Virus record (IMG/VR): IMGVR_UViG_3300006918_000003
Span: 1 to 51,512 of that record
Strand: one strand, 5' to 3'
Origin: a virus
Lineage: Duplodnaviria; Caudoviricetes
Length of the DNA stretch: 51,512 bases
The notes under the pieces: model-generated
The model's database searches: none
Seen by the model: only the letters and a program-made list of their open reading frames with translations
What the model was told of the DNA's origin: nothing
Shown: positions 1 through 51,512 of the stretch, one piece after another
How positions within the stretch are numbered: position 1 is the first letter of the stretch
How the letters are laid out: every line of letters begins with the position of its first letter
Position numbers and translations under genes: made by a program

Positions 1-66
1 GTCAGAGTGTGGCTAGTGGGTTACTTAACCCATATTATTATTAACTTATACTAAGGAGTATAGATC

Positions 67-684
67 ATGGCTACTAAAGACAAAACTGTTGAGGTCAAAG
101 GCGTAACGATCATTGCCGATAAAGTATTTGACGCCACGTTGAAAAGGATCAGCAAGAACGCAGAGGATTTGTCGCAAGACTTGCATATTGCTGGTCTCTA
201 TTGCATCAATCAAGCCAATCAATTCAACAATGCTGATAAAGCGCAACGTTTAATTGAGGCGATTGGTAACAAACAAGATATTCGCCGTGTAGCAAGATGG
301 ATGCAAACGTTTGGCAAAATCGGCGTGAAGAATAATCTTCTTGTCTTTAAGAAGAGGAAAGACATTACGCCAGCCAACGCGGATGGATGGTTGAAAAAGG
401 CAGATGCTACTCCCTATTGGGAATTGACACCACAGCCTAAGTTAGAAGTAACATTTGACTATCTGGCAATGCTGAATTCCATTCTGAATAGGGCAGCTAA
501 CAAGCCCAAATTGGAAGAGGAAGGGAAGACGGTTCATGAAAAAAATGTAGCGGTATTGGAGGAAATCAAGGGAATTATTCTTGCCCACACTCCAAAAGAG
601 GATCAAGACGAGATAAAGGAAAAAGCCGCGAACATTGCAAATCGCACCAAGTCTTTCACTGAACCGGCGGCAATGCGTCAATAA
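67..684 (+). CDS. Early hypothetical protein (205 aa), first gene of the early arm
   Basis: Long ORF with strong RBS (TAAGGAG, 52-58). It loosely resembles conserved early proteins of podoviruses; function unknown. Confidence 0.75.
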   Translation: MATKDKTVEVKGVTIIADKVFDATLKRISKNAEDLSQDLHIAGLYCINQANQFNNADKAQRLIEAIGNKQDIRRVARWMQTFGKIGVKNNLLVFKKRKDITPANADGWLKKADATPYWELTPQPKLEVTFDYLAMLNSILNRAANKPKLEEEGKTVHEKNVAVLEEIKGIILAHTPKEDQDEIKEKAANIANRTKSFTEPAAMRQ

Positions 685-689
685 TCCGG

Positions 690-742
690 TAAGAGTCAAT
701 ACAATAGGGATTCGTAAGAGTCCCTATTAATATGGATTCTTT
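690..742 (+). promoter_or_regulatory. Long hairpin, putative RNase III processing site
   Basis: Inner stem AATAGGGATTC-GTAA-GAGTCCCTATT (one G-U pair, GNRA loop), extended by AAGAGTCAATA/TATGGATTCTT. Intergenic, with no clear U-tract after the inner stem. Confidence 0.6.
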
Positions 743-766
743 AACTAGTAATAAGGAGTTTACTCT

Positions 767-850
767 ATGCTTGAAATTATTCTTATTGGTTTTTCTGGTT
801 TTATACTGGTAGTTATATTCATTATGTTAGTGGATATATTATCCAAGTAA
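767..850 (+). CDS. 27-aa single-pass membrane peptide (not in ORF track)
   Basis: AAGGAG RBS at 753-758; translates MLEIILIGFSGFILVVIFIMLVDILSK. Confidence 0.65.
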   Translation: MLEIILIGFSGFILVVIFIMLVDILSK

Positions 851-875
851 GAGTTTTTTAATAGAGGAGTACAGG

Positions 876-1232
876 ATGGTTATAAAGGTCGGTCAGACGT
901 GGAAGCATAAGACGCTCAACAGATATATTGAAATTGTGGACGGGGGAAATCTCTTTTACTTTGATGGAAAAGTAGAGAATAAATTCCTTATAAAATATAA
1001 TGGTATGTTGCATACTGTTAAATATAATCTAATCGAAAACAATTTCCTCTTATTTCAAGAAATGAAAATATCTGCGGGTGTTAAAAAGCATGGGGATACA
1101 TGGGCAGCAGCAGTGTATCCAACCTTAAACTTATTCTTTCAACATATTGAAACCGCACAGCGAGATTATGAAATTATGATTAATCATGGTAAGTGGAAGA
1201 AATGGCTGAAGGAAAAAAATTATAGGAGATAA
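876..1232 (+). CDS. Hypothetical early protein
   Basis: GAGGAG RBS; N-terminal VGQTWKHK motif suggests a small beta-barrel. Confidence 0.7.
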   Translation: MVIKVGQTWKHKTLNRYIEIVDGGNLFYFDGKVENKFLIKYNGMLHTVKYNLIENNFLLFQEMKISAGVKKHGDTWAAAVYPTLNLFFQHIETAQRDYEIMINHGKWKKWLKEKNYRR

Positions 1233-1234
1233 TC

Positions 1235-1450
1235 ATGGCAACAATGGCAGCTAAGGGCCAAATATGGAAATCTTCTCATGGTGTTCCATATGAGGTAAAG
1301 ATATTGGATGTAAACGACGAACATCAAACCATAAAAATTCAATACATCCTTGAAAAAAGGAATCCATGCCTGACAATTTATCTTGATGTTTTTTATGGTT
1401 TTTTTGAATATGTAAAAGACGAAGACAAACCCACTGACGAGCCTCAATAA
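1235..1450 (+). CDS. Hypothetical early protein; 3' end overlaps the hammerhead ribozyme
   Basis: AGGAG RBS; KGQIWKS motif; the stop codon lies in the ribozyme stem II loop. Confidence 0.7.
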   Translation: MATMAAKGQIWKSSHGVPYEVKILDVNDEHQTIKIQYILEKRNPCLTIYLDVFYGFFEYVKDEDKPTDEPQ

Positions 1451-1500
1451 GAGGCGAAACGGCATAACTTGGCGGGTTATGCTGTATGGGTTATTTTATT
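1428..1500 (+). ncRNA. Hammerhead ribozyme, type I
   Basis: Stem I AACCCA(1428-33)/TGGGTT(1487-92); core CTGACGA(1434-40); stem II GCCTC-AATAA-GAGGC(1441-55); GAAA(1456-59); stem III ACGGCATAAC/GTTATGCTGT; cleavage triplet GTA(1484-86). Loop II AATAA is complementary to TTATT(1496-1500). Confidence 0.92.
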
Positions 1501-1525
1501 TAATATTTATTCGGAGCGAATAAAA

Positions 1526-1744
1526 ATGTGTAAAAAAGTATTTGTGCAACATGAGCCACGTTATGACAGAAATAATGACGTTATTGGAGTCTACAAACGT
1601 AGACATGGGCACGTCATACAGGATGTAACACAAGAATATATTCATCGTGATTCTTTCGGACGCCATGTAATCCGCACATCTTCTGGTGATACATGGTCGG
1701 TCATGCCCGTGCACAATGATAAATACCAGTTTGTAACTGTTTAA
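1526..1744 (+). CDS. Hypothetical early protein
   Basis: ATG 1526 with upstream GGAG is preferred; the ORF-track TTG start at 1469 falls inside the ribozyme. Confidence 0.65.
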   Translation: MCKKVFVQHEPRYDRNNDVIGVYKRRHGHVIQDVTQEYIHRDSFGRHVIRTSSGDTWSVMPVHNDKYQFVTV

Positions 1745-1768
1745 TAATCTGAACAGGGACAAATTTCA

Positions 1769-1930
1769 ATGGCACCTCAAGACAAAAAGAATACCGATTC
1801 AGTATTGGAAACAATTTCTATACTTGTACATTCGTCTACATTGACGAATCAGTACAAACTAAAAAGAATAAAAGAAATTGTTGGAACAACAAAGGTAAGA
1901 GTCTTTAACAAACAAGAAAAAGTATCTTAA
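1769..1930 (+). CDS. 53-aa hypothetical protein (not in ORF track)
   Basis: Open frame MAPQDKKNTDSVLETISILVHSS...EKVS fills the gap between neighbours; AGGGA upstream. Confidence 0.5.
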   Translation: MAPQDKKNTDSVLETISILVHSSTLTNQYKLKRIKEIVGTTKVRVFNKQEKVS

Positions 1931-1945
1931 CAAAGGGAGTTGTAA

Positions 1946-2158
1946 ATGTTTCACGCATTTGTTTTCCATCAAGACCCCACTAGCAAAAAATATGTGGCAC
2001 GGAGAACTGGCGCGTCAACACAAGACCTTTCAACTGCAATTAGAATGGTCGAACGTGCCAAGAAAGAGGGATATGTTATTCTCTTAGGCCGAAAGAGACC
2101 TGTATGGAATAATGTAGAAAGAACAACCAAGCAACAATCAGCATTAAGTAATAGATAA
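1946..2158 (+). CDS. Hypothetical early protein
   Basis: GGGAG RBS; 70-aa ORF. Confidence 0.65.
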   Translation: MFHAFVFHQDPTSKKYVARRTGASTQDLSTAIRMVERAKKEGYVILLGRKRPVWNNVERTTKQQSALSNR

Positions 2159-2167
2159 CTCTAACTG

Positions 2168-2239
2168 TTAGTAATATAGAGTTATCAACAAGCATATTAG
2201 AAATAGTATGCTTGCTGGCTAATTTTGGCCTATTACTAA
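2168..2239 (+). promoter_or_regulatory. Long hairpin, putative RNase III processing site
   Basis: Inner stem CAAGCATATT/AGTATGCTTG, middle AGAGTTATCA/TGGCTAATTTT, outer TTAGTAATA/TATTACTAA; intergenic. Confidence 0.55.
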
Positions 2240-2251
2240 TAAGGTTTTAAA

Positions 2252-2437
2252 ATGAAAGTGTTACAAGTCAAGGGAACAAATCTCATTGATGTTTTTATTG
2301 GAGAGGGTTGGTACGGGCACAGCCGTTACCGGAAAGTGGTAAGCAAGGTAACAAAGAAGATCATCTATGTTTATGTTAGTGGTACAAAACTAAACATGTT
2401 TCAATTGAAAGAACTGTACACGAAGGTTAAGAAATGA
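2252..2437 (+). CDS. Hypothetical protein
   Basis: TAAGG RBS; 61-aa ORF coupled to the next gene by ATGA overlap. Confidence 0.65.
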   Translation: MKVLQVKGTNLIDVFIGEGWYGHSRYRKVVSKVTKKIIYVYVSGTKLNMFQLKELYTKVKK

Positions 2438-2649
2438 GAGTAGATTTACCTTTGCCCCCTAAGCCTACCCATTTTATGATTGGAAAGGTTTATCGGCACC
2501 GTGTTTCACATAGAGTTTATCTTCGTACAAATGATGGTAGTCTCGTTGACCTTGAGACAGGGTATATATTCATTTGTTCTACATCAGATCACAATATGGA
2601 TAATTATGAAGATGTAACAGATCAAGTAGTATTGACCAATTCAAAATAA
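2434..2649 (+). CDS. Hypothetical protein, apparent paralogue of 3280-3525
   Basis: Shares GxVY...Y...G...(E/K)DVT pattern with 3280-3525. Confidence 0.65.
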   Translation: MRVDLPLPPKPTHFMIGKVYRHRVSHRVYLRTNDGSLVDLETGYIFICSTSDHNMDNYEDVTDQVVLTNSK

Positions 2650-2656
2650 GGATAAC

Positions 2657-3283
2657 ATGAAACACAATCCATATGAGTTTTATGACTCATCATGTACTGA
2701 TCGCGGATTTGATGATTATCTCCTATTAGGCGGTGGTACGGATATAAATCCTGCCATCTATGGAGAGAAAGATCATGGATATTGCCAACACCCGCACAAG
2801 ACCCGCGACACAGTCAATATAAAAATGATTAATAAATACGTAGAGATGGGGAAACCTATCTTTGGTATTTGTCGTGGGTTTCAACTGCTTGATGCTGTTT
2901 TTGGCGGTAAGTTGATTCAGCATACAGTCGGTCATACGTCATATGCAAAGGTGTATGTAATTAATGATGAATCTGAACCAATTCCATTTGGTCATCCAGA
3001 AGTATTTATGTCATATGATAATTGTCGTAGTTGCCATCATCAAATGGTGGACTTAGATCATACCAACGGGAAGTTACTTGGTTGGTCTAAATATGAGGTT
3101 TTGTGCTCATTACCGGATGGTGGGGTTGAAGGGAGAAATATTGTCCCTCAAATACTTTATTGGCCTGACAAGAAAGCCCTTGCCGTCCAGTTTCATCCTG
3201 AGTGGCATAAAAAAGATCACCCCATGAATGAACATCTTCGTGGCCTCCTTAAAAACCTTCTTGGATTGGAGAATGTTCTATGA
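2657..3283 (+). CDS. Class I glutamine amidotransferase-like protein (peptidase C26 / gamma-glutamyl hydrolase type)
   Basis: LLGGGTDINP, GICRGFQ nucleophile elbow and QFHPE give the Cys-His-Glu triad. Confidence 0.9.
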   Translation: MKHNPYEFYDSSCTDRGFDDYLLLGGGTDINPAIYGEKDHGYCQHPHKTRDTVNIKMINKYVEMGKPIFGICRGFQLLDAVFGGKLIQHTVGHTSYAKVYVINDESEPIPFGHPEVFMSYDNCRSCHHQMVDLDHTNGKLLGWSKYEVLCSLPDGGVEGRNIVPQILYWPDKKALAVQFHPEWHKKDHPMNEHLRGLLKNLLGLENVL

Positions 3284-3525
3284 AAGTTAAGATAGTAGAT
3301 AAACCAAAAAACTCTCATGTTAACCCCACATTACTAATGGGACATGTTTATCAAAATCTCGATAGCAAAGAATTTTATTTTTCGGGATGTACCTCACATG
3401 GTTTGGTTAAGCATATCGTTTTGTTTCAAATATCCAGCGGCACAAGATGGAACGATGAGGGTGGATTTGGGAACGGTAGGTTCAAAGATGTAACTAGCGA
3501 TGCAACTTTTGTGGTGGAAGTGTAA
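3280..3525 (+). CDS. Hypothetical protein, apparent paralogue of 2434-2649
   Basis: ATGA overlap with upstream gene; GHVYQ...KDVT. Confidence 0.65.
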   Translation: MKVKIVDKPKNSHVNPTLLMGHVYQNLDSKEFYFSGCTSHGLVKHIVLFQISSGTRWNDEGGFGNGRFKDVTSDATFVVEV

Positions 3526-3529
3526 AAAC

Positions 3530-4456
3530 ATGGCACAAATGATTTCAATTGGTACAGATGCAGAAATATTTGCAGTAAATAATATTGGCCGTGCCATCGC
3601 CCTTTGTGGAAAGATTGGTGGCACTAAAGAACAACCCTTGCAAATCAAGGGACTTCCTCAAGGTTTCTGTGTACAGGAAGATAATGTCTCTGTTGAATTC
3701 AATATTCCTCCAGCGGGGAGTCTAATTGACTGGAATAGATACATCAGGGATGCATTAAGGGAAGTAAGTGTCATGTTGCATAGCATGAGGCTTTATTTCT
3801 CAAAGGATGCTGCTATTTCCTTTGGAAAGGATCAGCTTCTACATCCCAATGCATTAGTCTTTGGCTGTGAGCCTGATTACAATGCATGGACAAAGATGGA
3901 AAATGAAAAGCCTCAATGTGATGATCCCACATTACGCACAGCCGGTGGTCATATTCATGTGGGTACACGGGGTAACATGATTCAATGCGTGAACATGATG
4001 GATTTTTATCTTGGAGTTCCGTCGGTCATCCTCGATAACTCTCCCACAAGTGTCCGCCGTCGTAAACTGTACGGTAAAGCAGGGGCCATGAGGCCAAAAC
4101 CTTATGGCTTTGAGTATAGGGTTCTCAGTAATTTCTGGATTTTTACTGAAGAGTTGCGTAAGTGGGTTTATGACAATACAGCCCTTGCAATTGGGAGTGA
4201 GGAGGCCAAACTCTCTGCTACGTTGGCCGCAAAGATACAGCAATGTATTAATGAGGGCGATGTTAATTTAGCTAAGGATATTGTAGCTAAAAATCATATC
4301 CCAATGCCAAATGATGTAGCGAAAAAGCTGGCTGCCCCCAGTTGGGAAAAACATGCAGCTAAGGTAATGTCAACTGGTGCTGGATTCAATATTGATCCTA
4401 TGGACTTGCAAGCATTTCTTACTGGAATAGGTAATCATGACACAAACGGTGCTTGA
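3530..4456 (+). CDS. phiEco32-like COOH.NH2 ligase type 2
   Basis: IGTDAEIF, QEDNVSVEFNIPPA, FGCEPDYNAW, RTAGGHIHVG, LYGKAGAMRPKPYGFEYRVLSNFW. ATG 3530 preferred over 3500. Confidence 0.88.
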   Translation: MAQMISIGTDAEIFAVNNIGRAIALCGKIGGTKEQPLQIKGLPQGFCVQEDNVSVEFNIPPAGSLIDWNRYIRDALREVSVMLHSMRLYFSKDAAISFGKDQLLHPNALVFGCEPDYNAWTKMENEKPQCDDPTLRTAGGHIHVGTRGNMIQCVNMMDFYLGVPSVILDNSPTSVRRRKLYGKAGAMRPKPYGFEYRVLSNFWIFTEELRKWVYDNTALAIGSEEAKLSATLAAKIQQCINEGDVNLAKDIVAKNHIPMPNDVAKKLAAPSWEKHAAKVMSTGAGFNIDPMDLQAFLTGIGNHDTNGA

Positions 4457-5000
4457 TTCATTAGCAGAAACCCTTCATTTAAATCACCCTGCCTTAAGTA
4501 CTCAATTTAAATTAGGTGAATGTCGTCACAAGTTGGAAGGAACATTCATCTTCTTTGACAAAGAACTTATTCAGGTTGTAACCTTGAATAATAATGGGCT
4601 TGAGTTTACAAAAGAAGGGGACAATTCATCTGGTTTCATAGGATTGGGTATTAGGCTTCCACAAGGAAGTAAATTCTCCCTCTTTAATATGGATTCAGGA
4701 GTATATCGATTCAATGGTGTCCCAATCTGCTTCACACGCAGGGCCAAGAAGCAATATAAGAAATCCTTCTATCCTGAAGCATACAATATAACCTCACCTA
4801 GTGGGGATTGGGGTGAGAATACACATTTGAATTTCTATCAACTCCCTAAAATGCAAGAACTCACTTTCTATAGATATGGTGACTCTATCTATTACAGGAG
4901 TTTTTGTATTGCAGATGTTTTTAAGGGGAAGTTAAGAGTAGCAGGGGCATTTAAAAATGAGATTGAGAACGCAATAAGATATGGAATCATTACCATTTAG
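4437..5000 (+). CDS. Hypothetical protein within the ligase cluster
   Basis: 187-aa ORF overlapping both neighbours. Confidence 0.7.
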   Translation: MTQTVLDSLAETLHLNHPALSTQFKLGECRHKLEGTFIFFDKELIQVVTLNNNGLEFTKEGDNSSGFIGLGIRLPQGSKFSLFNMDSGVYRFNGVPICFTRRAKKQYKKSFYPEAYNITSPSGDWGENTHLNFYQLPKMQELTFYRYGDSIYYRSFCIADVFKGKLRVAGAFKNEIENAIRYGIITI

Positions 5001-5841
5001 TAATCGTGTTCTATACCCAAAACTCAAGACTTATGATGGGTTAATGGGTAAAATAAAACTTGCCTCTCCTTTCATTTACCTCGGAGTAGAGGTAGAGGCA
5101 GAGAATGTTAGTCATTTTTACAGTCAATACAGCATCCCCGGATCATGGAGGATAGTAGAGGACGGCTCATTAAAGGTTCATGGATCAGAGTATGTAACTG
5201 TCCCTATTAAATTTAAATATATTGAAATGGAATTGCGTAGATTGTTTGATGCCATACCAAAGGCAGAATTCTCTCCACGTACTTCAATTCATATCCATGT
5301 TAATTCTAGGGACTTCACAGATCAAGAATTATTCAGATTCTTAGTGTTATATCTGATCTTTGAAAGAAATCTGTATAAATTTGCAGGGGATAGATGGTTA
5401 AATAACTTCTGTGTTCCAATCCATAGCTCACCGGGAAATATAGGGACAATACTAAGGCATTGTCATGGAAATGTTCTCTCTAATATTTCTTGGTGCAAAT
5501 ACTATGGCCTTAATCTTCTTCCTTTATTGGGGGAAGAGGGATCAAGTTGCCGGTATGGTACGATTGAGTTCCGTCATATGATAGGGAATAATGACGTAGA
5601 GTACATTATGAATTGGTGTAACCTTATCCTTAGCCTTAAGCTGGCGGCTAAGAGTTGTACCAATGAGTTCTTAATGTCTTCATTATTAATGAATGAAACT
5701 ACGTCACTAGCCTTCATTGACTTGATATTTAAAGACTGGGCTACTCATATAGCATCGATGCCTATGGCATCACAGATGATAGAAGAGTCGTCTTTAGCAA
5801 CTAAGATTTATTTGGCTCAAGCAGGAATACTAAGTAATTAA
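4981..5841 (+). CDS. Putative amidoligase (COOH-NH2 ligase, Amidoligase_2-like)
   Basis: GVEVE, EDGSL, RTSIHIHVN, KYYGLNL and GTIEFRH motifs. Confidence 0.85.
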   Translation: MESLPFSNRVLYPKLKTYDGLMGKIKLASPFIYLGVEVEAENVSHFYSQYSIPGSWRIVEDGSLKVHGSEYVTVPIKFKYIEMELRRLFDAIPKAEFSPRTSIHIHVNSRDFTDQELFRFLVLYLIFERNLYKFAGDRWLNNFCVPIHSSPGNIGTILRHCHGNVLSNISWCKYYGLNLLPLLGEEGSSCRYGTIEFRHMIGNNDVEYIMNWCNLILSLKLAAKSCTNEFLMSSLLMNETTSLAFIDLIFKDWATHIASMPMASQMIEESSLATKIYLAQAGILSN

Positions 5842-5857
5842 GGAATAAAAATATAAA

Positions 5858-7006
5858 ATGTGTGGAATCGTTGGTGTTATCTCGAAGCGTAAGAATGGTT
5901 TGTTCCATTCAGATATTGACATCTTTACTGATCTATTGTTTGCCGATCAACTCCGTGGTGCGCATGGGACAGGGATGTTTTATGATGTAGATGGAGTCGG
6001 TCATGCTTTTAAAGGGCCGATGCCTTCTAGTTCATTCCTTCGGAGTGAGAAGATTGGGCCTGTTTTTAATACAGTGGTACAAAAGTCTAATTTCCTTATT
6101 GGACATAACCGCCACGCAACTAAAGGGGGTGTTAGTTTTGATAGTACACACCCTTTTATTGAAGGTGAAACTGTACTAATTCACAATGGGACTCTACCAA
6201 GCCATAAGCATATAAAAGATGTTGAGGTGGATAGTCATGCCATCTGCCATTCAATCAATGAGATTGGTCACATTGAAACCCTGAAGAAGATTGATGGGGC
6301 CTTCGCATTGGTATGGTTTGATGGAAACACAAAGAAACTCCACTTCATCCGTAATACTGAAAGGCCATTACATATAGTTGAAACCGATGACTTAATTGTA
6401 ATGTCCTCTGAAGCAGGGCTGGTTGAGTGGATATTGAAGAGGAAACTAGTAAATAAGGTGCAACCTACTGTTTCCTGTGAAGTGGGTCATCTTTATACCT
6501 ATGATATCCATACACATCTTCTTTCGAATGAAAAGGTAGAGATTAAGCCCAAGTCTTATACGGGTGGGAAATTTTATGGGGCCAATTGGGATGCATACTT
6601 TCCCGCTGATTCCACAAAGAAAAGGCCTACTACCTATACCCCACCACCTGTTAATAATACTAGGTATCATAGTTCTTATTTTGTTGATGCAAGGGTAGGG
6701 GATACGATTATATTCTCTCCTGTTGATCTTCAACAGAATGGGAAGACATGGGTATTGAGTGGTTTGGGGGATACATTGATCTATAACACTGTGCATGTTG
6801 AACAGATTCAGAAGGAAGTTCAATTGACAGTTAGGTTCTTTAACCCACACGAAGAGCAATTGCGTAATTTATTGGACTATGCCCAATGCCGTGCTCAGAT
6901 TATCCAAATAGTATGGAAGGGTAATAATAAATCTGTAGTAGTTAAAGATGTTCAGCCTGTAATTGAGGGACTTCCAGTACCGACGCCGGTGGCAACTGTT
7001 CAATGA
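5858..7006 (+). CDS. Class II (Ntn) glutamine amidotransferase with C-terminal extension
   Basis: N-terminal MCGIVG nucleophile; RG, GHNRHATKG, HPF, HNG, VDS, DGAFALVW and RNTERPL motifs. Confidence 0.92.
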   Translation: MCGIVGVISKRKNGLFHSDIDIFTDLLFADQLRGAHGTGMFYDVDGVGHAFKGPMPSSSFLRSEKIGPVFNTVVQKSNFLIGHNRHATKGGVSFDSTHPFIEGETVLIHNGTLPSHKHIKDVEVDSHAICHSINEIGHIETLKKIDGAFALVWFDGNTKKLHFIRNTERPLHIVETDDLIVMSSEAGLVEWILKRKLVNKVQPTVSCEVGHLYTYDIHTHLLSNEKVEIKPKSYTGGKFYGANWDAYFPADSTKKRPTTYTPPPVNNTRYHSSYFVDARVGDTIIFSPVDLQQNGKTWVLSGLGDTLIYNTVHVEQIQKEVQLTVRFFNPHEEQLRNLLDYAQCRAQIIQIVWKGNNKSVVVKDVQPVIEGLPVPTPVATVQ

Positions 7007-7728
7007 AAACAATAATTGTATCTCCATTATGTACCGCAGATTCCGCTAAAGACCTAGCCAATAGGTTAGGTATCCAGTGGGTAGAAAAAGCAGATAATAT
7101 AACATGGGGTGACACCTTCCGAGTCATTAATTGGGGGTGTTCTAGACTAAAAGCTGAGAACATTATCCTTAATGATCCCCGTGCAGTTCGCCGAAGTTTG
7201 AATAAGTTACGTACATTTGAACTACTTTCCGATAAAGTTAAGATGCCCACCATGACTCTTGATAAGGAAGAAGCAAAACAATGGGCAATGGATGGACGAA
7301 AGGTGGTAGTTCGTAATAGAGTTAAGGGATGCAAGAGTCAAGGGATTACTATAACTAAGGATACCCATGACATAGCCATTCTCCCTGCTAAATTTTATAC
7401 TCGATTTATTGCAAATTGTACTGAATATCGGGTAAATGTTTATAAGGGTAAGGTACTCACTGTTTATCGTAAGGAACCTTGTGGTAATGATTTTCGATTC
7501 AAGATTCAGCTTGGGCCTCTCATTGAAGCCACATATGATGAGACTTTAAAGGACTTCATCAATAATGTGGATGAGCATATCAAGTTGGATACGTATGGAT
7601 TGGATATGCTTCATACCCCTAAAGGAAAATGGTTTCTATTGGAAGTGAATTCCGCCCCAATATTGTTCCCAATAACATATAAGAGATTAGCTAAAGCAAT
7701 CAAACAGGATTTATTTGAAAATGAGTGA
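7003..7728 (+). CDS. ATP-grasp ligase (RimK-like)
   Basis: NKLRTF, EYRVNV, YGLDML and LLEVNSAP motifs. Confidence 0.85.
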   Translation: MKTIIVSPLCTADSAKDLANRLGIQWVEKADNITWGDTFRVINWGCSRLKAENIILNDPRAVRRSLNKLRTFELLSDKVKMPTMTLDKEEAKQWAMDGRKVVVRNRVKGCKSQGITITKDTHDIAILPAKFYTRFIANCTEYRVNVYKGKVLTVYRKEPCGNDFRFKIQLGPLIEATYDETLKDFINNVDEHIKLDTYGLDMLHTPKGKWFLLEVNSAPILFPITYKRLAKAIKQDLFENE

Positions 7729-9720: not shown

Positions 9721-9859
9721 AGAGTGGGATTGTAAGTGGATGTACCACACTATAAAAGGATTCACTTATAGTGAAGAGGTAGCTAAAGAGTGGAAGTTTC
9801 ATGATGGTCAAGAAGAATATAGAGATTATGAAGAAATAGAGGAAATAACAGTTGGATGA
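9692..9859 (+). CDS. Hypothetical protein
   Basis: ATG 9692 after AAGGA. Confidence 0.55.
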   Translation: MMKSKIYLLREWDCKWMYHTIKGFTYSEEVAKEWKFHDGQEEYRDYEEIEEITVG

Positions 9860-10190
9860 TTTTCATTCTAAATTATATTTAGAAGCTCATGTTACAATTG
9901 ATCCTATCTTTGATTCTAGACTTAAGAAAGCTAGGTACTTAGCAAAGCTATATGGATTTAAAGTAGCTGAGTTACTAATGAAAAAGAGAAAAGAAGATAC
10001 TCCTGAAAGATCAAAGTATGATACTTTTATGACTGGACATGGTACTAGTTTTGCTGATTTAAAGATTAGGACTGCGGGTTTAATTCAAGCCCTACAAAAA
10101 CATAATTTTGTTGTCCGTCGATATAAAATCGAAGATACTATCCTTGATTCAAGATCAAATGATATTTTTGGATTATTGCAAGGGAAATAA
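9852..10190 (+). CDS. Hypothetical phage protein
   Basis: GAGG RBS, TTG start; EAHVTIDP...RYKIED. Confidence 0.65.
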   Translation: MDDFHSKLYLEAHVTIDPIFDSRLKKARYLAKLYGFKVAELLMKKRKEDTPERSKYDTFMTGHGTSFADLKIRTAGLIQALQKHNFVVRRYKIEDTILDSRSNDIFGLLQGK

Positions 10191-10194
10191 TAAA

Positions 10195-10395
10195 ATGAAA
10201 TTATATGATTTTATTGAAGCACTAATTAAATTAGAACAACAAGGACATGCAGAACTAGATGTTTATTATCGTCATAGTTCTAGTGGAGATTGTGGGGGAG
10301 TGAATAGTGTGTCTATAACTGAAGAATGTGATCCAGAAACCGGGCCATTTGATACAACATCACCATACATTTCTATTTCTGTAGGTGGAAACTGA
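10195..10395 (+). CDS. Hypothetical protein
   Basis: ATG 10195 after AAGGGA preferred over the track start at 10108. Confidence 0.6.
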   Translation: MKLYDFIEALIKLEQQGHAELDVYYRHSSSGDCGGVNSVSITEECDPETGPFDTTSPYISISVGGN

Positions 10396-16704: not shown

Positions 16705-17061
16705 ATGAAAAATATTAATTTCGCTTTTAAACAAGACGGTGGCTTAACTTTAGAATGGCAACAAGATGGAAGTAGAGTTGGATACATTCGTCTACATAAG
16801 GGAGAAGCACCCGGCCCTGTTACCCATTCACTAGTTGTAGAATTATATTCAGATAAAACATTTGAATTTAAAATGATGAAGAAGGAGTATGAGCATTCTG
16901 AGCCATTCCGTGAAAAACTGATGGACATCACACGATGGTTGCGGGAGCAAGGATATACAGGAGGAGATTGGTATCGGTTCAACGAAGAACGATTAAAGAA
17001 AGTAAAGATACCAGAGAATTACCTCACGACGAGTGTAGCTAATGAAGATACCCCTAAGTGA
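16705..17061 (+). CDS. Hypothetical protein
   Basis: 118-aa ORF. Confidence 0.65.
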   Translation: MKNINFAFKQDGGLTLEWQQDGSRVGYIRLHKGEAPGPVTHSLVVELYSDKTFEFKMMKKEYEHSEPFREKLMDITRWLREQGYTGGDWYRFNEERLKKVKIPENYLTTSVANEDTPK

Positions 17062-17542
17062 ATATGAGCATATTCATAATGAAATAAAAGAAGGTAAAAC
17101 ATATAAAGAAATTGCAGATAGATATAGTGTATCTGCTGAGAGGATTAGGCAGATAGGTGTGCAAACTAGGGTAAGTCATAGTGGACATGACGCTCGACGT
17201 AGAAGTAAATATAATGAAATTCTAAGGAACATAAACGAAGAGAGTAAGGAATTATTTTATCATGCTGGATATGATCCTTATGATATTTTAGAGGAATGTT
17301 TAATCCTCTACGATGTGAAGAGACGTTATTTCAGGGCATCACAAACAAAGTTTGATGTAGATTTCACAGATATTATCTGGCATAGGTTTTGTCCTTTTTC
17401 CGGAGAAGAGATGGATTACTTTGCAGAGCGTTCTTCTCCCACTGCCCCCATTATTTCTGTCATTGATAAAACAGGAGGATATGTGAAAGAAAATGTACAT
17501 ACTAAGATAAAATTTATGAAATCAAGTTATTATGTGGTATAA
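17042..17542 (+). CDS. HTH protein fused to a degenerate HNH-like domain
   Basis: GKTYKEIADRYSVSAERIRQI (sigma region 4-like HTH); FDVDF...CPFSG...IISVIDKTGGYVKENV. Confidence 0.65.
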   Translation: MKIPLSEYEHIHNEIKEGKTYKEIADRYSVSAERIRQIGVQTRVSHSGHDARRRSKYNEILRNINEESKELFYHAGYDPYDILEECLILYDVKRRYFRASQTKFDVDFTDIIWHRFCPFSGEEMDYFAERSSPTAPIISVIDKTGGYVKENVHTKIKFMKSSYYVV

Positions 17543-18119: not shown

Positions 18120-18812
18120 ATGACAACTGCTCTTATTGATGGTGATCTGGTTGCCTATATTAGTGCTGCGTCATGTACAGAAGACGACCCACAGCACATT
18201 GCTTTAATCAGGGTAGAGGATAGATTAAGAAAAATAATTGATTATGTAAAGTGTACTTCCTACAGAATCTTCGTATCAGGTGGGAATAACTTTAGATATG
18301 AACTCTATCCTGATTATAAGGCTAATCGGACTTCTCCTGATCCCAAGCATAGACAAGCCTGTCATCAGTTTATTATTGATGAATGGAAGGGTGAGGAGAC
18401 AGATGGATTTGAAGCTGACGATGCTTTGGGGTGCTATCAAACAGATGATACCATTATCTGTTCTTTAGATAAAGACCTTCGGATGATTCCCGGAAAACAC
18501 TTCTCATGGGAAATAACCAGAAAGGGAGCTATTATTAGAGAGCCAGAATTTGCAGAAGTAGATTATATGACTGGAATAAAACATTTCTACAAGCAAATGA
18601 TAATTGGTGATACATCAGACAATATCTTCGGTATAGATGGGCTTGGTAAGGCTAAAGCCGCAAAACTGATTGATCCACTATCCACTGAGAAAGATATGTA
18701 TGATTTGGTAGCATCCCTTTACAATGATGAAGCACGTTTTACAATGAATGCGGATTGTCTCTGGATTTGGAGAATGTTAGGAATCACTTATTCATTGAGG
18801 GGGCTATGTTGA
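18120..18812 (+). CDS. 5'-3' exonuclease (T7 gp6-like flap nuclease)
   Basis: LIDGD, YKANR, EADD, DKDL and GDTSDNIFGIDGLG. Confidence 0.92.
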   Translation: MTTALIDGDLVAYISAASCTEDDPQHIALIRVEDRLRKIIDYVKCTSYRIFVSGGNNFRYELYPDYKANRTSPDPKHRQACHQFIIDEWKGEETDGFEADDALGCYQTDDTIICSLDKDLRMIPGKHFSWEITRKGAIIREPEFAEVDYMTGIKHFYKQMIIGDTSDNIFGIDGLGKAKAAKLIDPLSTEKDMYDLVASLYNDEARFTMNADCLWIWRMLGITYSLRGLC

Positions 18813-23851: not shown

Positions 23852-23887
23852 AAAAAGAAGCCCCTCTTTAATCGGAGGGGCTTTTTA
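23852..23887. terminator. Bidirectional intrinsic terminator between the convergent arms
   Basis: AAAAAG-AAGCCCCTCT-TTAATC-GGAGGGGCTT-TTT, with A-tract and T-tract flanks. Confidence 0.92.
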
Positions 23888-36355: not shown

Positions 36356-36392
36356 AATAAAAAGGGGAGCAGGAGCGCCAGCCCACTCCCCT
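36356..36392 (-). terminator. Intrinsic terminator after the capsid genes
   Basis: Minus strand AGGGGAGTGGG-CTGGCGCT-CCTGCTCCCCT followed by TTTTATT. Confidence 0.82.
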
Positions 36393-49624: not shown

Positions 49625-50207
49625 TGCCGGGGTAGTACCAAACAGAATAGCCAATTAAGGTTATTGTTTCACTTGCAACTAGTGCTTCCCATCTAGCCGG
49701 GAAATCAATTACTACATCTTGTGATGTATCTTGTGCTTGGTCTGTAAGGCGAGAGGCTGCACCATACGTAGTATGATTATGAATCGCCTGTGCACTTAAG
49801 CTATTCTTATTTGCTATCTCAACTAGATACTTTGCCCCTAGAAGAGTAGTCACTGTTGCAGAAGATATCTGATTCCCACCCCAATTAATTGTAAGGCGTT
49901 TGTTATTAGCTGATCCTGTATATGACCAGTCTACCACAATACGCAATACACCATTGGTTCCCATTAGCCCACCGGGAACTGTGACAGATGCAAGGGCTAC
50001 ATAATCTGTGTCAACAACAGCCCCTACGCCATTTGTAGATTCCCTTGTGACGGGAGAGTATGATTGTGAAACAAGAAATGGAATCTTTAAGGTAGAGCCA
50101 GTGGGCGATACGAGTCCTTGTACTTGTCCTGTTTCAGTCTCTTCAAAGACAGCAACAGAGTCTAGACCCCCATCACCCAATCTATCATTAATTGATTTCG
50201 TTGCCAT
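49617..50207 (-). CDS. Putative virion structural protein
   Basis: AAAGGA RBS; beta-rich; VPGGLMGTNGVLRI. Confidence 0.55.
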   Translation of the reverse strand: MATKSINDRLGDGGLDSVAVFEETETGQVQGLVSPTGSTLKIPFLVSQSYSPVTRESTNGVGAVVDTDYVALASVTVPGGLMGTNGVLRIVVDWSYTGSANNKRLTINWGGNQISSATVTTLLGAKYLVEIANKNSLSAQAIHNHTTYGAASRLTDQAQDTSQDVVIDFPARWEALVASETITLIGYSVWYYPGND

Positions 50208-50209
50208 TA

Positions 50210-50740
50210 TTATCCTTTAGCTATACGAAGACCCATACGTTCTATATCAGATTCTAATTCTCTATCTAGACCAGCAGCTATTTTCTTTTCACGTTCTACT
50301 TCATCCTTCGATGGTCTTCCACGCTTACTTGTATAACCTGCCTCTGCGAGGTATTTGGAGGCATTAGCTCCTGCGGCGTTTGGCTCTTTGGCTGTTCGCA
50401 TGAGGAGTCGTATGGCATTAGCCTTATTCTTGATTTCGAGTTCGTTTCTCCATTCAGCAAATATGGAGCGAAGCCCACTATTATTAAGCTTAACCCAATG
50501 ATCCCATGACCCAAAACACGCAGTGGCGAACTCATATTCAAATCCCGGTATATGATCGTAGGAGAAGTATATCTTCTTCAATGAAGGATAGAGTACTCCA
50601 TCAACAACAACGTCCTCATCTTTCCAAGACCATAAGGGTTGAAGTTCAGGGGAAGGTCTCTCAATGAATAGACTATAGGTGCGATAACGCCCTAGATGGT
50701 CTTTCAATTGATTTGTAGTATTCTCAGGTACATTCAACAT
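50210..50740 (-). CDS. terS: Terminase small subunit (putative)
   Basis: EYEFA...GSWDHW, ASKYL, KRGRPSK; first large gene of the late arm. Confidence 0.65.
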   Translation of the reverse strand: MLNVPENTTNQLKDHLGRYRTYSLFIERPSPELQPLWSWKDEDVVVDGVLYPSLKKIYFSYDHIPGFEYEFATACFGSWDHWVKLNNSGLRSIFAEWRNELEIKNKANAIRLLMRTAKEPNAAGANASKYLAEAGYTSKRGRPSKDEVEREKKIAAGLDRELESDIERMGLRIAKG

Positions 50741-50743
50741 AAC

Positions 50744-50821
50744 TTACCTTTCGGCTGGGCCGGGAGTTATCCACCATTCACCAGTTCCGGGAGTCCATTT
50801 CCATTTGCCGGGAATCATCAT
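50744..50821 (-). CDS. 25-aa Trp/Pro/Gly-rich peptide (not in ORF track)
   Basis: MMIPGKWKWTPGTGEWWITPGPAER; its end (AAGG-TAA) supplies the terS RBS. Confidence 0.4.
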   Translation of the reverse strand: MMIPGKWKWTPGTGEWWITPGPAER

Positions 50822-50991
50822 TATATTTTTCTCAGAAGATTTACATCGTATTCGTTCTTTCAGAAGAATACTCTGTTATTTGCAGTCTTCAAACAGAAGA
50901 CACACTATGCCTCGTTATAAACATAATGTTCTTGTTTGTTTTCTTTCTTTTTATTTATTCTTTAATTTCATAATATTTACTAAACAAGAAT

Positions 50992-51020
50992 ATTATACCA
51001 TATTTTTACTTGTTTTACAA
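50992..51020 (-). promoter_or_regulatory. Sigma70-type promoter for the late arm
   Basis: Minus strand TTGTAA-17 nt-TATAAT with extended TG-n (ATGGTATAAT). Confidence 0.8.
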
Positions 51021-51029
51021 TGTAGAATA

Positions 51030-51445
51030 TGATATACCCTATGCTCACAGCTTCTTATGTGAGCTGTCTATCAGCGAACATAGTATATTAGTTCTATACG
51101 GTGTCTTCTATCTATAGTGCTATAGCTCGATTATAGATATTTCTATGAGAAAATGTATAGTTGTAATGCACTATAAAATCAATACCCCTATCCCCCTATG
51201 ACCCCATTGACTATTAATTAATAATATAAATATAAATAATAACTATTATCATTAGCATTGGCTATTAATAATGATTATGATTATCATTAGCATTATTATT
51301 AGTTGTATCAATTCCATTACCATTCATTCACCTATAGAAGATATAGCTATACGCTTATGACTATTAAGTCTTAGCATTACGGTGTGGTTTGTACTACGCA
51401 TGCATGAATACGAGACTAGTTAGTACGGCATTAGTCATAATGCCC
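51030..51445. other. Non-coding AT-rich region between divergent promoters; likely genome termini/origin
   Basis: No credible ORFs; TTATCATTAGCATT x2 (51246, 51281), CCCCTA/CCCCAT triplet, repeated TATAG, and hairpins at 51043-64 and 51427-44. Confidence 0.55.
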
Positions 51446-51484
51446 TTACAAGTAATTCTTGTAGCCATTACAAGTAATTCTTGT
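51446..51484. repeat. Tandem 17-bp palindromic repeats (operator-like)
   Basis: TTACAAGTAATTCTTGT at 51446-62 and 51468-84; 22-bp period; ACAAG-n5-CTTGT dyad. Confidence 0.8.
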
Positions 51485-51485
51485 C

Positions 51486-51512
51486 TTGACAAGGTCGGTC
51501 AATAGGAGTATA
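51486..51512 (+). promoter_or_regulatory. Early sigma70-type promoter spanning the window junction
   Basis: TTGACA(51486-91)-17 nt-TATA(51509-12), completed by GT at positions 1-2 to give TATAGT. Confidence 0.7.

Follow-up and report, generated by a model that had tools for sequence, protein, structure and literature searches.

A type I hammerhead and T7-like hairpins at early gene boundaries of a Zobellviridae-like soil phage: a candidate mixed system of RNA processing

Introduction

Phage-encoded hammerhead ribozymes have been proposed to cut long transcripts into gene- or operon-length mRNAs, and the hammerheads of three prophage arrays are described as cleaved in vitro (Perreault et al. 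2011, PMC3088659). The same account reports for the haloviruses HF1/HF2 a hammerhead located 13 nucleotides (nt) before an early gene start, at whose cut site a 5' end has been mapped (PMC3088659). Differing stabilities of ribozyme-processed fragments have been suggested, and according to reviews it is still an open question what the thousands of hammerheads in phages and bacteria do biologically (PMC6765202). With engineered ribozymes, a 5'-hydroxyl is reported to slow decay that depends on the 5' end (preprint 10.1101/2020.07.22.216051). Here we analyze the early arm of a soil phage, represented by the whole 51,512-base-pair (bp) IMG/VR virus record IMGVR_UViG_3300006918_000003 (hereafter the window), in which one hammerhead and two hairpins resembling the RNase III sites of phage T7 lie at successive gene boundaries.

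The second class of described systems consists of RNase III sites. Substrates of the Escherichia coli enzyme typically span two helical turns, and a helix of 11 bp between cut and tetraloop is given as the minimum (Pertzev and Nicholson 2006, PMC1540722). In the T7 site R1.1, the distal box U-A/U•G promotes binding, with a stringent requirement for the U•G pair (PMC1540722), and a review describes the distal box as not conserved across RNase III substrates or species (Nicholson review, PMC3867540). The reading developed below, for and against which we see the balance as about equal, is that three interchangeable cis-acting processing elements punctuate the first 2.3 kb of an early arm transcribed by host polymerase, two of them (hairpins A and B) being RNase III sites and the third a hammerhead.

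Results

Three structured RNA elements at the start of the early arm

An earlier sequence-only reading of this DNA had placed structured RNAs near positions 716, 1460 and 2200, each at a gene boundary, and folding recovers all three at these positions with the following coordinates.

690..746, plus strand: hairpin A, a predicted T7-like RNase III-type signal; lower stem 691–697/735–741, middle stem 699–701/731–733
703..728, plus strand: hairpin A, continued; upper stem 703–713/718–728 (11 bp), loop GUAA 714–717
1428..1492, plus strand: predicted type I hammerhead ribozyme; stem I 1428–1433/1487–1492, core CUGACGA 1434–1440, stem II 1441–1445/1451–1455
1456..1485, plus strand: hammerhead, continued; GAA 1456–1458, stem III 1459–1470/1474–1485
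2154..2186, plus strand: hairpin C; 10 bp with a 13-nt loop, its 3' arm being the 5' box of module B, so that it competes with the lower stem of B
2174..2240, plus strand: hairpin B module; 5' box 2177–2186, upper stem 2189–2199/2204–2214 (11 bp), loop GAAA 2200–2203

Among 10,293 windows of 50 nt on the transcribed strands, the three elements rank 1st, 5th and 8th for GC-corrected stability. The plus-strand gene arm is tightly packed, with just seven gaps of at least 60 nt between open reading frames (ORFs) of at least 45 amino acids (aa), and the hammerhead spacer constitutes an eighth that is masked by a TTG-extended ORF; within this arrangement the elements occupy the first three gaps after the leader, namely the spacers 685–766, 1451–1525 and 2159–2251. 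The predicted leaders that would remain after cutting measure 33–39 nt at all sites. No further ribozyme was found in the window at the Rfam gathering level or at E ≤ 5. The regular interval of about 740 nt that had also been claimed is numerically right (centers at 716, 1460 and 2201), but three points carry no weight and the spacing has no detectable cause; tandem duplication as its source was rejected, the blocks not being paralogous (best blastp E 0.24, best blastn E 0.21).

Hammerhead and hairpin occupy the same leader in two related phages

Capsid homology yielded 80 related IMG/VR loci, the closest near-complete relative among them being G001, a genome of 50,066 bp that has terminal repeats and a capsid protein 80% identical to that of the window; it is syntenic with the window and carries homologues of gp1, gp5, gp7, gp8 and the amidotransferase among others. 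In the window, the hammerhead precedes gp5 and the B-type hairpin precedes gp8. In G001, it is a B-type hairpin that immediately precedes the gp5 homologue (9906–10127, 38% identity) and takes up the leader that holds the hammerhead in the window; the genes that come before gp5 in the two phages show no homology to each other. A comparison of related genomes for an interchange of hammerhead and hairpin at the same boundary had been proposed as a check, and the interchange appears in G001, the one relative in which the boundary is comparable. Such swapping at the gp5 leader suggests that the two elements do the same job.

The proposal that the early transcript is cut by two chemistries is thereby upheld in part: the canonical hammerhead, the position of hairpins A and B as the top window matches to a T7-site model and the slot swap in G001 all favor it, but the cuts themselves are predictions. 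The picture of mixed ribozyme and RNase III processing, as a proposal drawn from genome sequence, is supported by comparison. Derivation of the hammerhead from a B-type module was considered and rejected, a local match of 15/20 being at chance level (704/2000 shuffles; 964/2000 against the G001 slot), and the near-coincidence of both cut sites in an alignment is therefore given no weight.

The predicted type I hammerhead at 1428–1492

The segment 1428–1492 is, on its predicted fold, a canonical type I hammerhead and by itself an ordinary phage element. All core positions C3 U4 G5 A6 N7 G8 A9 and G12 A13 A14 are present as CUGACGA (1434–1440) and GAA (1456–1458). Stems I, II and III comprise 6, 5 and 12 bp; stem I is open, stem II is closed by a G-C pair and stem III by A15.1-U16.1, and the pairs 10.1–11.1, 15.1–16.1 and 1.1–2.1 are intact. 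The cleavable NUH triplet is GUA (G1484 U1485 A1486), which places the predicted cut between A1486 and U1487. The minimum free energy fold is exactly the three-way junction, at −28.1 kcal/mol (z −4.98, with 0/200 shuffles as stable). A loose core pattern matches the window 10 times against 4.0 ± 2.2 expected, and the helices follow at 1428–1492 only; the full descriptor finds this one window site, and 300 dinucleotide shuffles give seven loose matches, none with stems as long.

For comparison, a scan of IMG/VR for the hammerhead core together with the same stem II returned 15 loci, nearly all of which carry type I hammerheads, often several per locus and just upstream of a ribosome-binding site. 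A model (R1) of 26 other phage type I hammerheads, with the window left out, scores the window element at 40.4 bits (E 5.6e-9) as the sole match in 183 kb (the window and three GenBank relatives), a score to be read with the caveat that the 15 seed loci were found by a pattern sharing the stem II letters of the window. Placement agrees as well. The upstream ORF ends inside the ribozyme or at most 2 nt from it in 17 of the 26 seeds, and in the window the overlap is 23 nt; in 11/26 the upstream ORF terminates at the UGA of the core (for example in loci L004, L015 and L016), and in 6 more the stop abuts the ribozyme, so that the 5' half would commonly lie under terminating ribosomes. The next start follows 17–41 nt after the ribozyme in most seeds and 34 nt after it in the window. 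As an observation apart, an unrelated viral contig (L012) has a type I hammerhead-like core at 483–560, directly upstream of an apparent tRNA gene start.

Hairpins A and B resemble T7 RNase III sites

Hairpins A and B, as judged from their predicted folds, closely resemble T7-type RNase III processing sites. Hairpin A forms a helix of 7 + 3 + 11 = 21 bp with small interruptions between 691 and 741, which amounts to an interrupted helix of about two turns, and shares a short 3' flank motif with T7 R18.5; the fold of 686–745 has −22.8 kcal/mol (z −5.96, 0/200 shuffles as stable) against −16.9 for the minus strand. Module B combines its 11-bp helix with a lower stem of 6–7 bp that competes with hairpin C and with a small tail hairpin, since the conserved tail (2217–2230) either forms a 5-bp hairpin or pairs with the 5' box as the lower stem. 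Between the presumed target site and the loop, each of the two hairpins has 11 bp, equal to the published lower limit. The upper stem of T7 R1.1 ends in the same apex as the window hairpins (A-U, U•G, U-A and the closing pair, in R1.1 under a natural GCAA loop); the distal-box-like pairs are U711•G720 and U712-A719 in A and U2197•G2206 and U2198-A2205 in B, and an R1.1-type distal box is invariant in 7/7 aligned members of the hairpin family described below. By analogy with T7, the cut would fall near U733/G734 in hairpin A, giving a 33-nt leader, and near U2216/G2217 in hairpin B, giving a 35-nt leader. Hairpin A ends 20 nt upstream of the gp2 start (767), and module B lies about 12 nt upstream of the gp8 ribosome-binding site.

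The T7 GenBank records carry no annotated RNase III site features. The site coordinates used are attributed to Dunn and Studier (1983). Seven of 10 sites, and only these, make up model R3; R3.8 and R13, which do not share the architecture, and R6.5, whose assigned position was wrong, were left out. In five of the seven seeds the site coordinate coincides with a common ...AU|G junction, and in the remaining two it lies 5 nt beyond the upper stem. Searched on both strands of the window with filters off, R3 ranks hairpin B 1st (25.0 bits, E 0.0028) and hairpin A 2nd (20.6 bits, E 0.036), with the third-best match at 16.3 bits; the model thus picks exactly the two hairpins that the sequence-only reading had named. 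Over 541 kb (the window and 11 relatives), the three best matches are all members of the hairpin family, specifically the G001 gp1 leader (28.1 bits, E 0.005), the G001 post-gp1 hairpin (22.9 bits) and a copy in G017 (19.6 bits), and the model gives no match at E ≤ 10 in 13 unrelated phage loci. In T7 itself, R3 finds its seven seeds and an eighth, non-seed site before gene 6.5 (18499–18581, L133; 43.2 bits).

A covarying hairpin family in related phages

Hairpin B with its tail is the sole non-coding nucleotide match between window 1–3000 and G001 (83% over 54 nt, G001 9830–9883), with a score that 0/2000 shuffles reach; two stem pairs are changed on both sides in a compensatory manner, and the tail 2217–2230 is nearly invariant. 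A two-sequence model built from window B and G001 was used to find further copies, namely the G001 gp1 leader (41.9 bits), G019 (47.3 bits) and G010 (34.1 bits), with weak matches at the G001 post-gp1 hairpin and at window hairpin A, and a descriptor search added the G017 copy. By this comparison of predicted structures, hairpins A and B are members of a covarying family present in at least five related phage genomes. In the alignment of seven sequences, ten upper-stem pairs are 100% paired and seven of them change on both sides, whereas the pairs A-U, U•G and U-A directly under the loop-closing pair are invariant in 7/7 members. Covariation scores 0.714, compared with 0.218 ± 0.051 for shuffles (0/500 reach it), and sliding the partners reduces pairing to about 40%. 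Additionally, the small tail hairpin covaries, so that both it and the alternative lower stem have some comparative support, and the shared flanks (5' box and tail) are evidence of homology that does not depend on the stem. Upper stems are 11 bp long in A and B and 10–15 bp in the relatives, every member lies on the coding strand 10–20 nt before a ribosome-binding site, and gp8-like genes follow the module in G019 and G010. The family has no match in Rfam and would define an uncatalogued conserved RNA motif.

Because of their G•U pairs, the hairpins fold more stably from the plus strand than from the minus strand; this bias, together with stem sequences that vary while pairing is kept, argues for an RNA element rather than a DNA operator. 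The apex descriptor alone is unspecific (14 matches in 12 genomes against a shuffle mean of 6.5 and maximum of 14), so that only long-stem matches were used, and a 12-nt apex motif was discarded as a signal in the window, its two matches being reached by 40/100 shuffles. A promoter reading of the module 5' box was rejected, there being no −35 element at the right distance, and a sigma-70 promoter at 2225–2253 was judged not useful, its −10 element overlapping the gp8 start codon. Two side observations concern these hairpins. In G001 (L102), a hairpin at about 10240–10290 with a tail like that of the post-gp1 hairpin stands before a small hydrophobic ORF and is probably another family member. 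A 9-mer found at 689–697 and 714–722, both parts of hairpin A, has a third exact copy at 1895–1903 (plus strand) within gp6 that is unexplained; three copies compare with 0.37 expected, and 2/100 shuffles reach three.

RNase E prefers A/U-rich single strands next to a stable hairpin. Instead of serving RNase III, the family might mark an RNase E-type site in its A/U-rich tail, or might be bound by an RNA-binding protein of phage or host, for example a translational repressor or an antiterminator; we consider this alternative distinctly improbable. An apex that is invariant and contains a wobble pair is what one expects of a protein recognition site, each copy of the module stands 10–20 nt before a ribosome-binding site, and the B tail, nearly invariant against G001 and with a covarying hairpin, is A/U-rich beside a stable hairpin in a way that suits RNase E. 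Against these points, the early proteins show no family matches in the PHROGs and Pfam scans and include no candidate hairpin-binding protein, hairpin A lacks the conserved tail, and the likeness to T7 sites spans both stems.

Evidence against mixed processing and a terminator alternative

A number of observations weigh against the reading of A and B as RNase III sites interchangeable with a hammerhead, and they are gathered here. The interchange is seen in a single genome pair: gp5 homologues occur in 1/34 relatives and in one IMG/VR locus, and these are the same genome. Regarding the hairpins, the R3 scores of A and B are modest, with rough E calibration, and go unreported under default filters; the apex shared with R1.1 is suggestive, not diagnostic, given that the distal box is described as not conserved among substrates (PMC3867540); and the covariation figures are inflated by the use of structure-aware tools to gather the family members.

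Regarding the hammerhead, the Rfam gathering level is not reached (RAGATH-1-hammerhead 23.9 bits, cut-off 56.3; HH9 13.8 bits, cut-off 52). As a tertiary contact between loop II and the stem I region, a 5-bp A/U pairing of loop II with the 3' tail can be drawn; it is equaled by 303/500 shuffled tails and so does not stand out from chance. Moreover, 34 capsid relatives, of which 8 have a completeness of 90% or more, yielded no copy of the hammerhead (a positive control was run), nor did the 3 GenBank relatives; it is a singleton. Likewise, the exact core has no match in metagenome contigs, and contigs of three DNA runs contain no variant covering the hammerhead. The singleton status, the missing gathering-level match, the want of a demonstrable tertiary contact and the coverage of the 5' half by ribosomes translating gp4 would all suit an inactive hammerhead or a chance motif, with the gp4/gp5 junction read through. 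We judge this highly improbable, since 0/300 shuffles are as good, every core position is canonical, R1 gives E 5.6e-9, and architecture and placement match 26 other phage hammerheads.

Stable tetraloop hairpins are common between phage cistrons. A further alternative accepts the hammerhead as real and takes the hairpins as leaky intrinsic terminators or attenuators, or as simple barriers to 3' exonucleases, that grade expression of the early operon without serving RNase III; we hold it to be unlikely. The slot after gp1 speaks for it: a stable hairpin stands there in 5/5 genomes with a gp1 homologue, four of these hairpins being T7-like, and in G014 the slot contains a canonical terminator with nine U. 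The MW202697 hairpin in this slot is flagged as terminator-like, and U-rich tails follow in both MW202697 and G001. A G+C-rich stem with a U-run, as found in the G014 and MW202697 equivalents, is lacking in A and B, which have no U-run directly after the stem (3–4 U in the first 9 tail nt) and are not flagged in a terminator scan, whereas the clear terminators of the window look different, with G+C-rich stems and T-runs at 23855–23886 and 36363–36392. A terminator role would also leave unexplained the invariant A-U/U•G/U-A apex, the lower stems and the ranking by the T7 model. What the post-gp1 hairpins have in common may be the provision of a 3' end for the gp1 message, whether by processing or by termination. 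Of the two clear window terminators (23855–23886 and, on the minus strand, 36363–36392), one is bidirectional between the convergent gene arms and the other follows the major capsid gene.

Genome organization and the early arm

On sequence grounds, the window phage is a Zobellviridae-like podophage. Its record is classed as linear and rated 100% complete, and its capsid protein is 74% identical to that of an uncultured podovirus from a spring (MW202697) and about 70% identical to those of MEP401 and MEP402, two Methylophilales phages assigned to Zobellviridae. Plus-strand genes from 67 to about 23,850 encode early functions, an amidoligase/glutamine amidotransferase cluster, primase, helicase, a split DNA polymerase, ThyX and ribonucleotide reductase, and the minus strand carries the structural and lysis genes, between 50,740 and 24,160. 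The features of the early arm that adjoin the RNA elements are as follows.

51486..51512, plus strand: candidate early sigma-70 promoter; −35 TTGACA 51486–51491, 17-nt spacer, −10 starting at 51509–51512
67..684, plus strand: gp1, conserved early protein (phrog_1448), first gene of the early arm, with homologues in 5/12 genomes examined
767..850, plus strand: gp2, ORF of a 27-aa hydrophobic peptide with an AAGGAG ribosome-binding site, without family match
1235..1450, plus strand: gp4, 71 aa; its last 23 nt lie inside the hammerhead, with the UAA stop (1448–1450) in loop II
1526..1744, plus strand: gp5, 72 aa, downstream of the hammerhead; GGAG ribosome-binding site 1513–1516
2252..2437, plus strand: gp8, 61 aa, downstream of module B, with homologues in G001, MW202697 and G014

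The scan of 88 ORF products (28 against PHROGs and 60 against Pfam) revealed no RNA polymerase, RNase III, RNA ligase, polynucleotide kinase or RtcB, so that transcription and RNA processing would have to rely on the host. The −10 element of the candidate promoter (TATAGT) is completed by window bases 1–2 when the contig ends are joined, the joining being an assumption; under it, this near-consensus promoter would agree with an early polycistronic RNA that begins near window base 9. Promoter-like sites are enriched in 50000–51512 (13 against 6.0 ± 2.3 expected). Immediately upstream of the promoter, a 17-nt unit, in itself a small inverted repeat, occurs twice in direct orientation (51446–51462 and 51468–51484), and a 7-bp hairpin lies at 16–33, near the predicted 5' end of the transcript on the joined ends; judged by their arrangement, the repeats and promoter at the joined ends look like an operator-controlled early promoter.

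With gp1, gp4 and the ligase as queries, no close relatives were found in viral contigs; gp1 gave no match in metagenome contigs, and megablast of 1–6000 gave none in GenBank phages. Right after module B, one sequencing-run contig swaps 83 nt (2239–2323) for 343 other letters, a strain variant at the gp8 start. Farther along the plus strand, 2657–7728 contains genes for glutamine amidotransferase, COOH-NH2 ligase, amidoligase, a GlmS-like aminotransferase and an ATP-grasp-like protein, a phiEco32-type modification module conserved in G001 and MW202697. A 166-aa protein encoded at 17042–17542 (plus strand) matches Sigma-70 region 4 (E 3e-6) and may serve the structural arm as a sigma-like factor of the phage.

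Discussion

Proposed mechanism

In the mixed-processing reading, each element would act in the 5' leader of the next gene within the first 2.3 kb of the early arm. Host RNase III would cut hairpins A and B at the helix interruption, on its 3' side (near 733/734 and 2216/2217); the upstream RNA would keep the hairpin as a protective 3' end, and the downstream message would begin with a 5'-phosphate. The hammerhead would cut itself after A1486, so that the upstream message would keep stems II and III and end in a 2',3'-cyclic phosphate, and the 39-nt leader of gp5 would start with a 5'-hydroxyl. Both kinds of element would thus serve as functionally interchangeable cistron separators. The difference in end chemistry, 5'-hydroxyl against 5'-phosphate, could in turn affect stability. 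We regard as speculative, and rather unlikely, the stronger proposal that hammerheads and T7-like hairpins are interchangeable cassettes that set a 5'-hydroxyl or 5'-phosphate on the downstream message and so give each block its own decay, dependent on host enzymes or not.

Under that stronger proposal, the phage would gain independence from host RNase III at the gp5 leader, and cleavage could sense upstream translation because the 5' half of the ribozyme lies under ribosomes finishing gp4. If mixed processing is true, the G001 comparison would supply direct comparative evidence for phage hammerheads as mRNA processing sites, and T7-style RNase III punctuation would extend to a phage family that uses the host polymerase throughout. 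The hammerhead/hairpin slot also offers a simple swap experiment on the role of phage hammerheads and of end chemistry.

Comparison with known systems

RiboJ is a ribozyme insulator of synthetic biology. Similar to the ribozyme insulators described in the preprint 10.1101/2020.07.22.216051, the window hammerhead is a predicted self-cleaving leader ribozyme that would give a 5'-hydroxyl; those insulators are engineered, and the phage use put forward here is a proposal. Within the library of papers searched, no description of a natural mixed hammerhead/RNase III phage system was found, the matches being, by title and abstract, all engineered guide-RNA or expression systems.

With respect to T7, the window hairpins share with R1.1 a two-tier architecture (lower stem, interruption and an upper stem of 10–11 bp) and an identical apex under a GNRA loop, and, like the sites in T7 early RNA, they would be intercistronic in a predicted polycistronic early RNA. 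Unlike T7, the window phage belongs to another phage family and has neither a phage RNA polymerase nor the T7 kinase. The window stems are A/U-rich, unlike those of T7 sites; module B carries in addition a conserved tail that can form a small hairpin as an alternative; and R3 scores of 20–28 bits stand against 43–66 bits for T7's own sites.

With respect to the clustered hammerheads of Perreault and colleagues, as that paper describes them, the window element is likewise of type I, has a canonical core and lies between small phage genes just upstream of a ribosome-binding site. In contrast to those arrays, the window holds a single hammerhead whose neighboring slots are occupied by T7-like hairpins. 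It overlaps the upstream ORF by 23 nt with the stop in loop II, compared with the stop at the core UGA in 11/26 of the comparison hammerheads. The suggestion that this locus represents an uncharacterized regulatory system was overstated for its hammerhead half, since hammerheads that process polycistronic RNAs of phages, with possible differences in stability, have been described before (PMC3088659, PMC6765202). The new part is the pairing of the hammerhead with T7-like sites.

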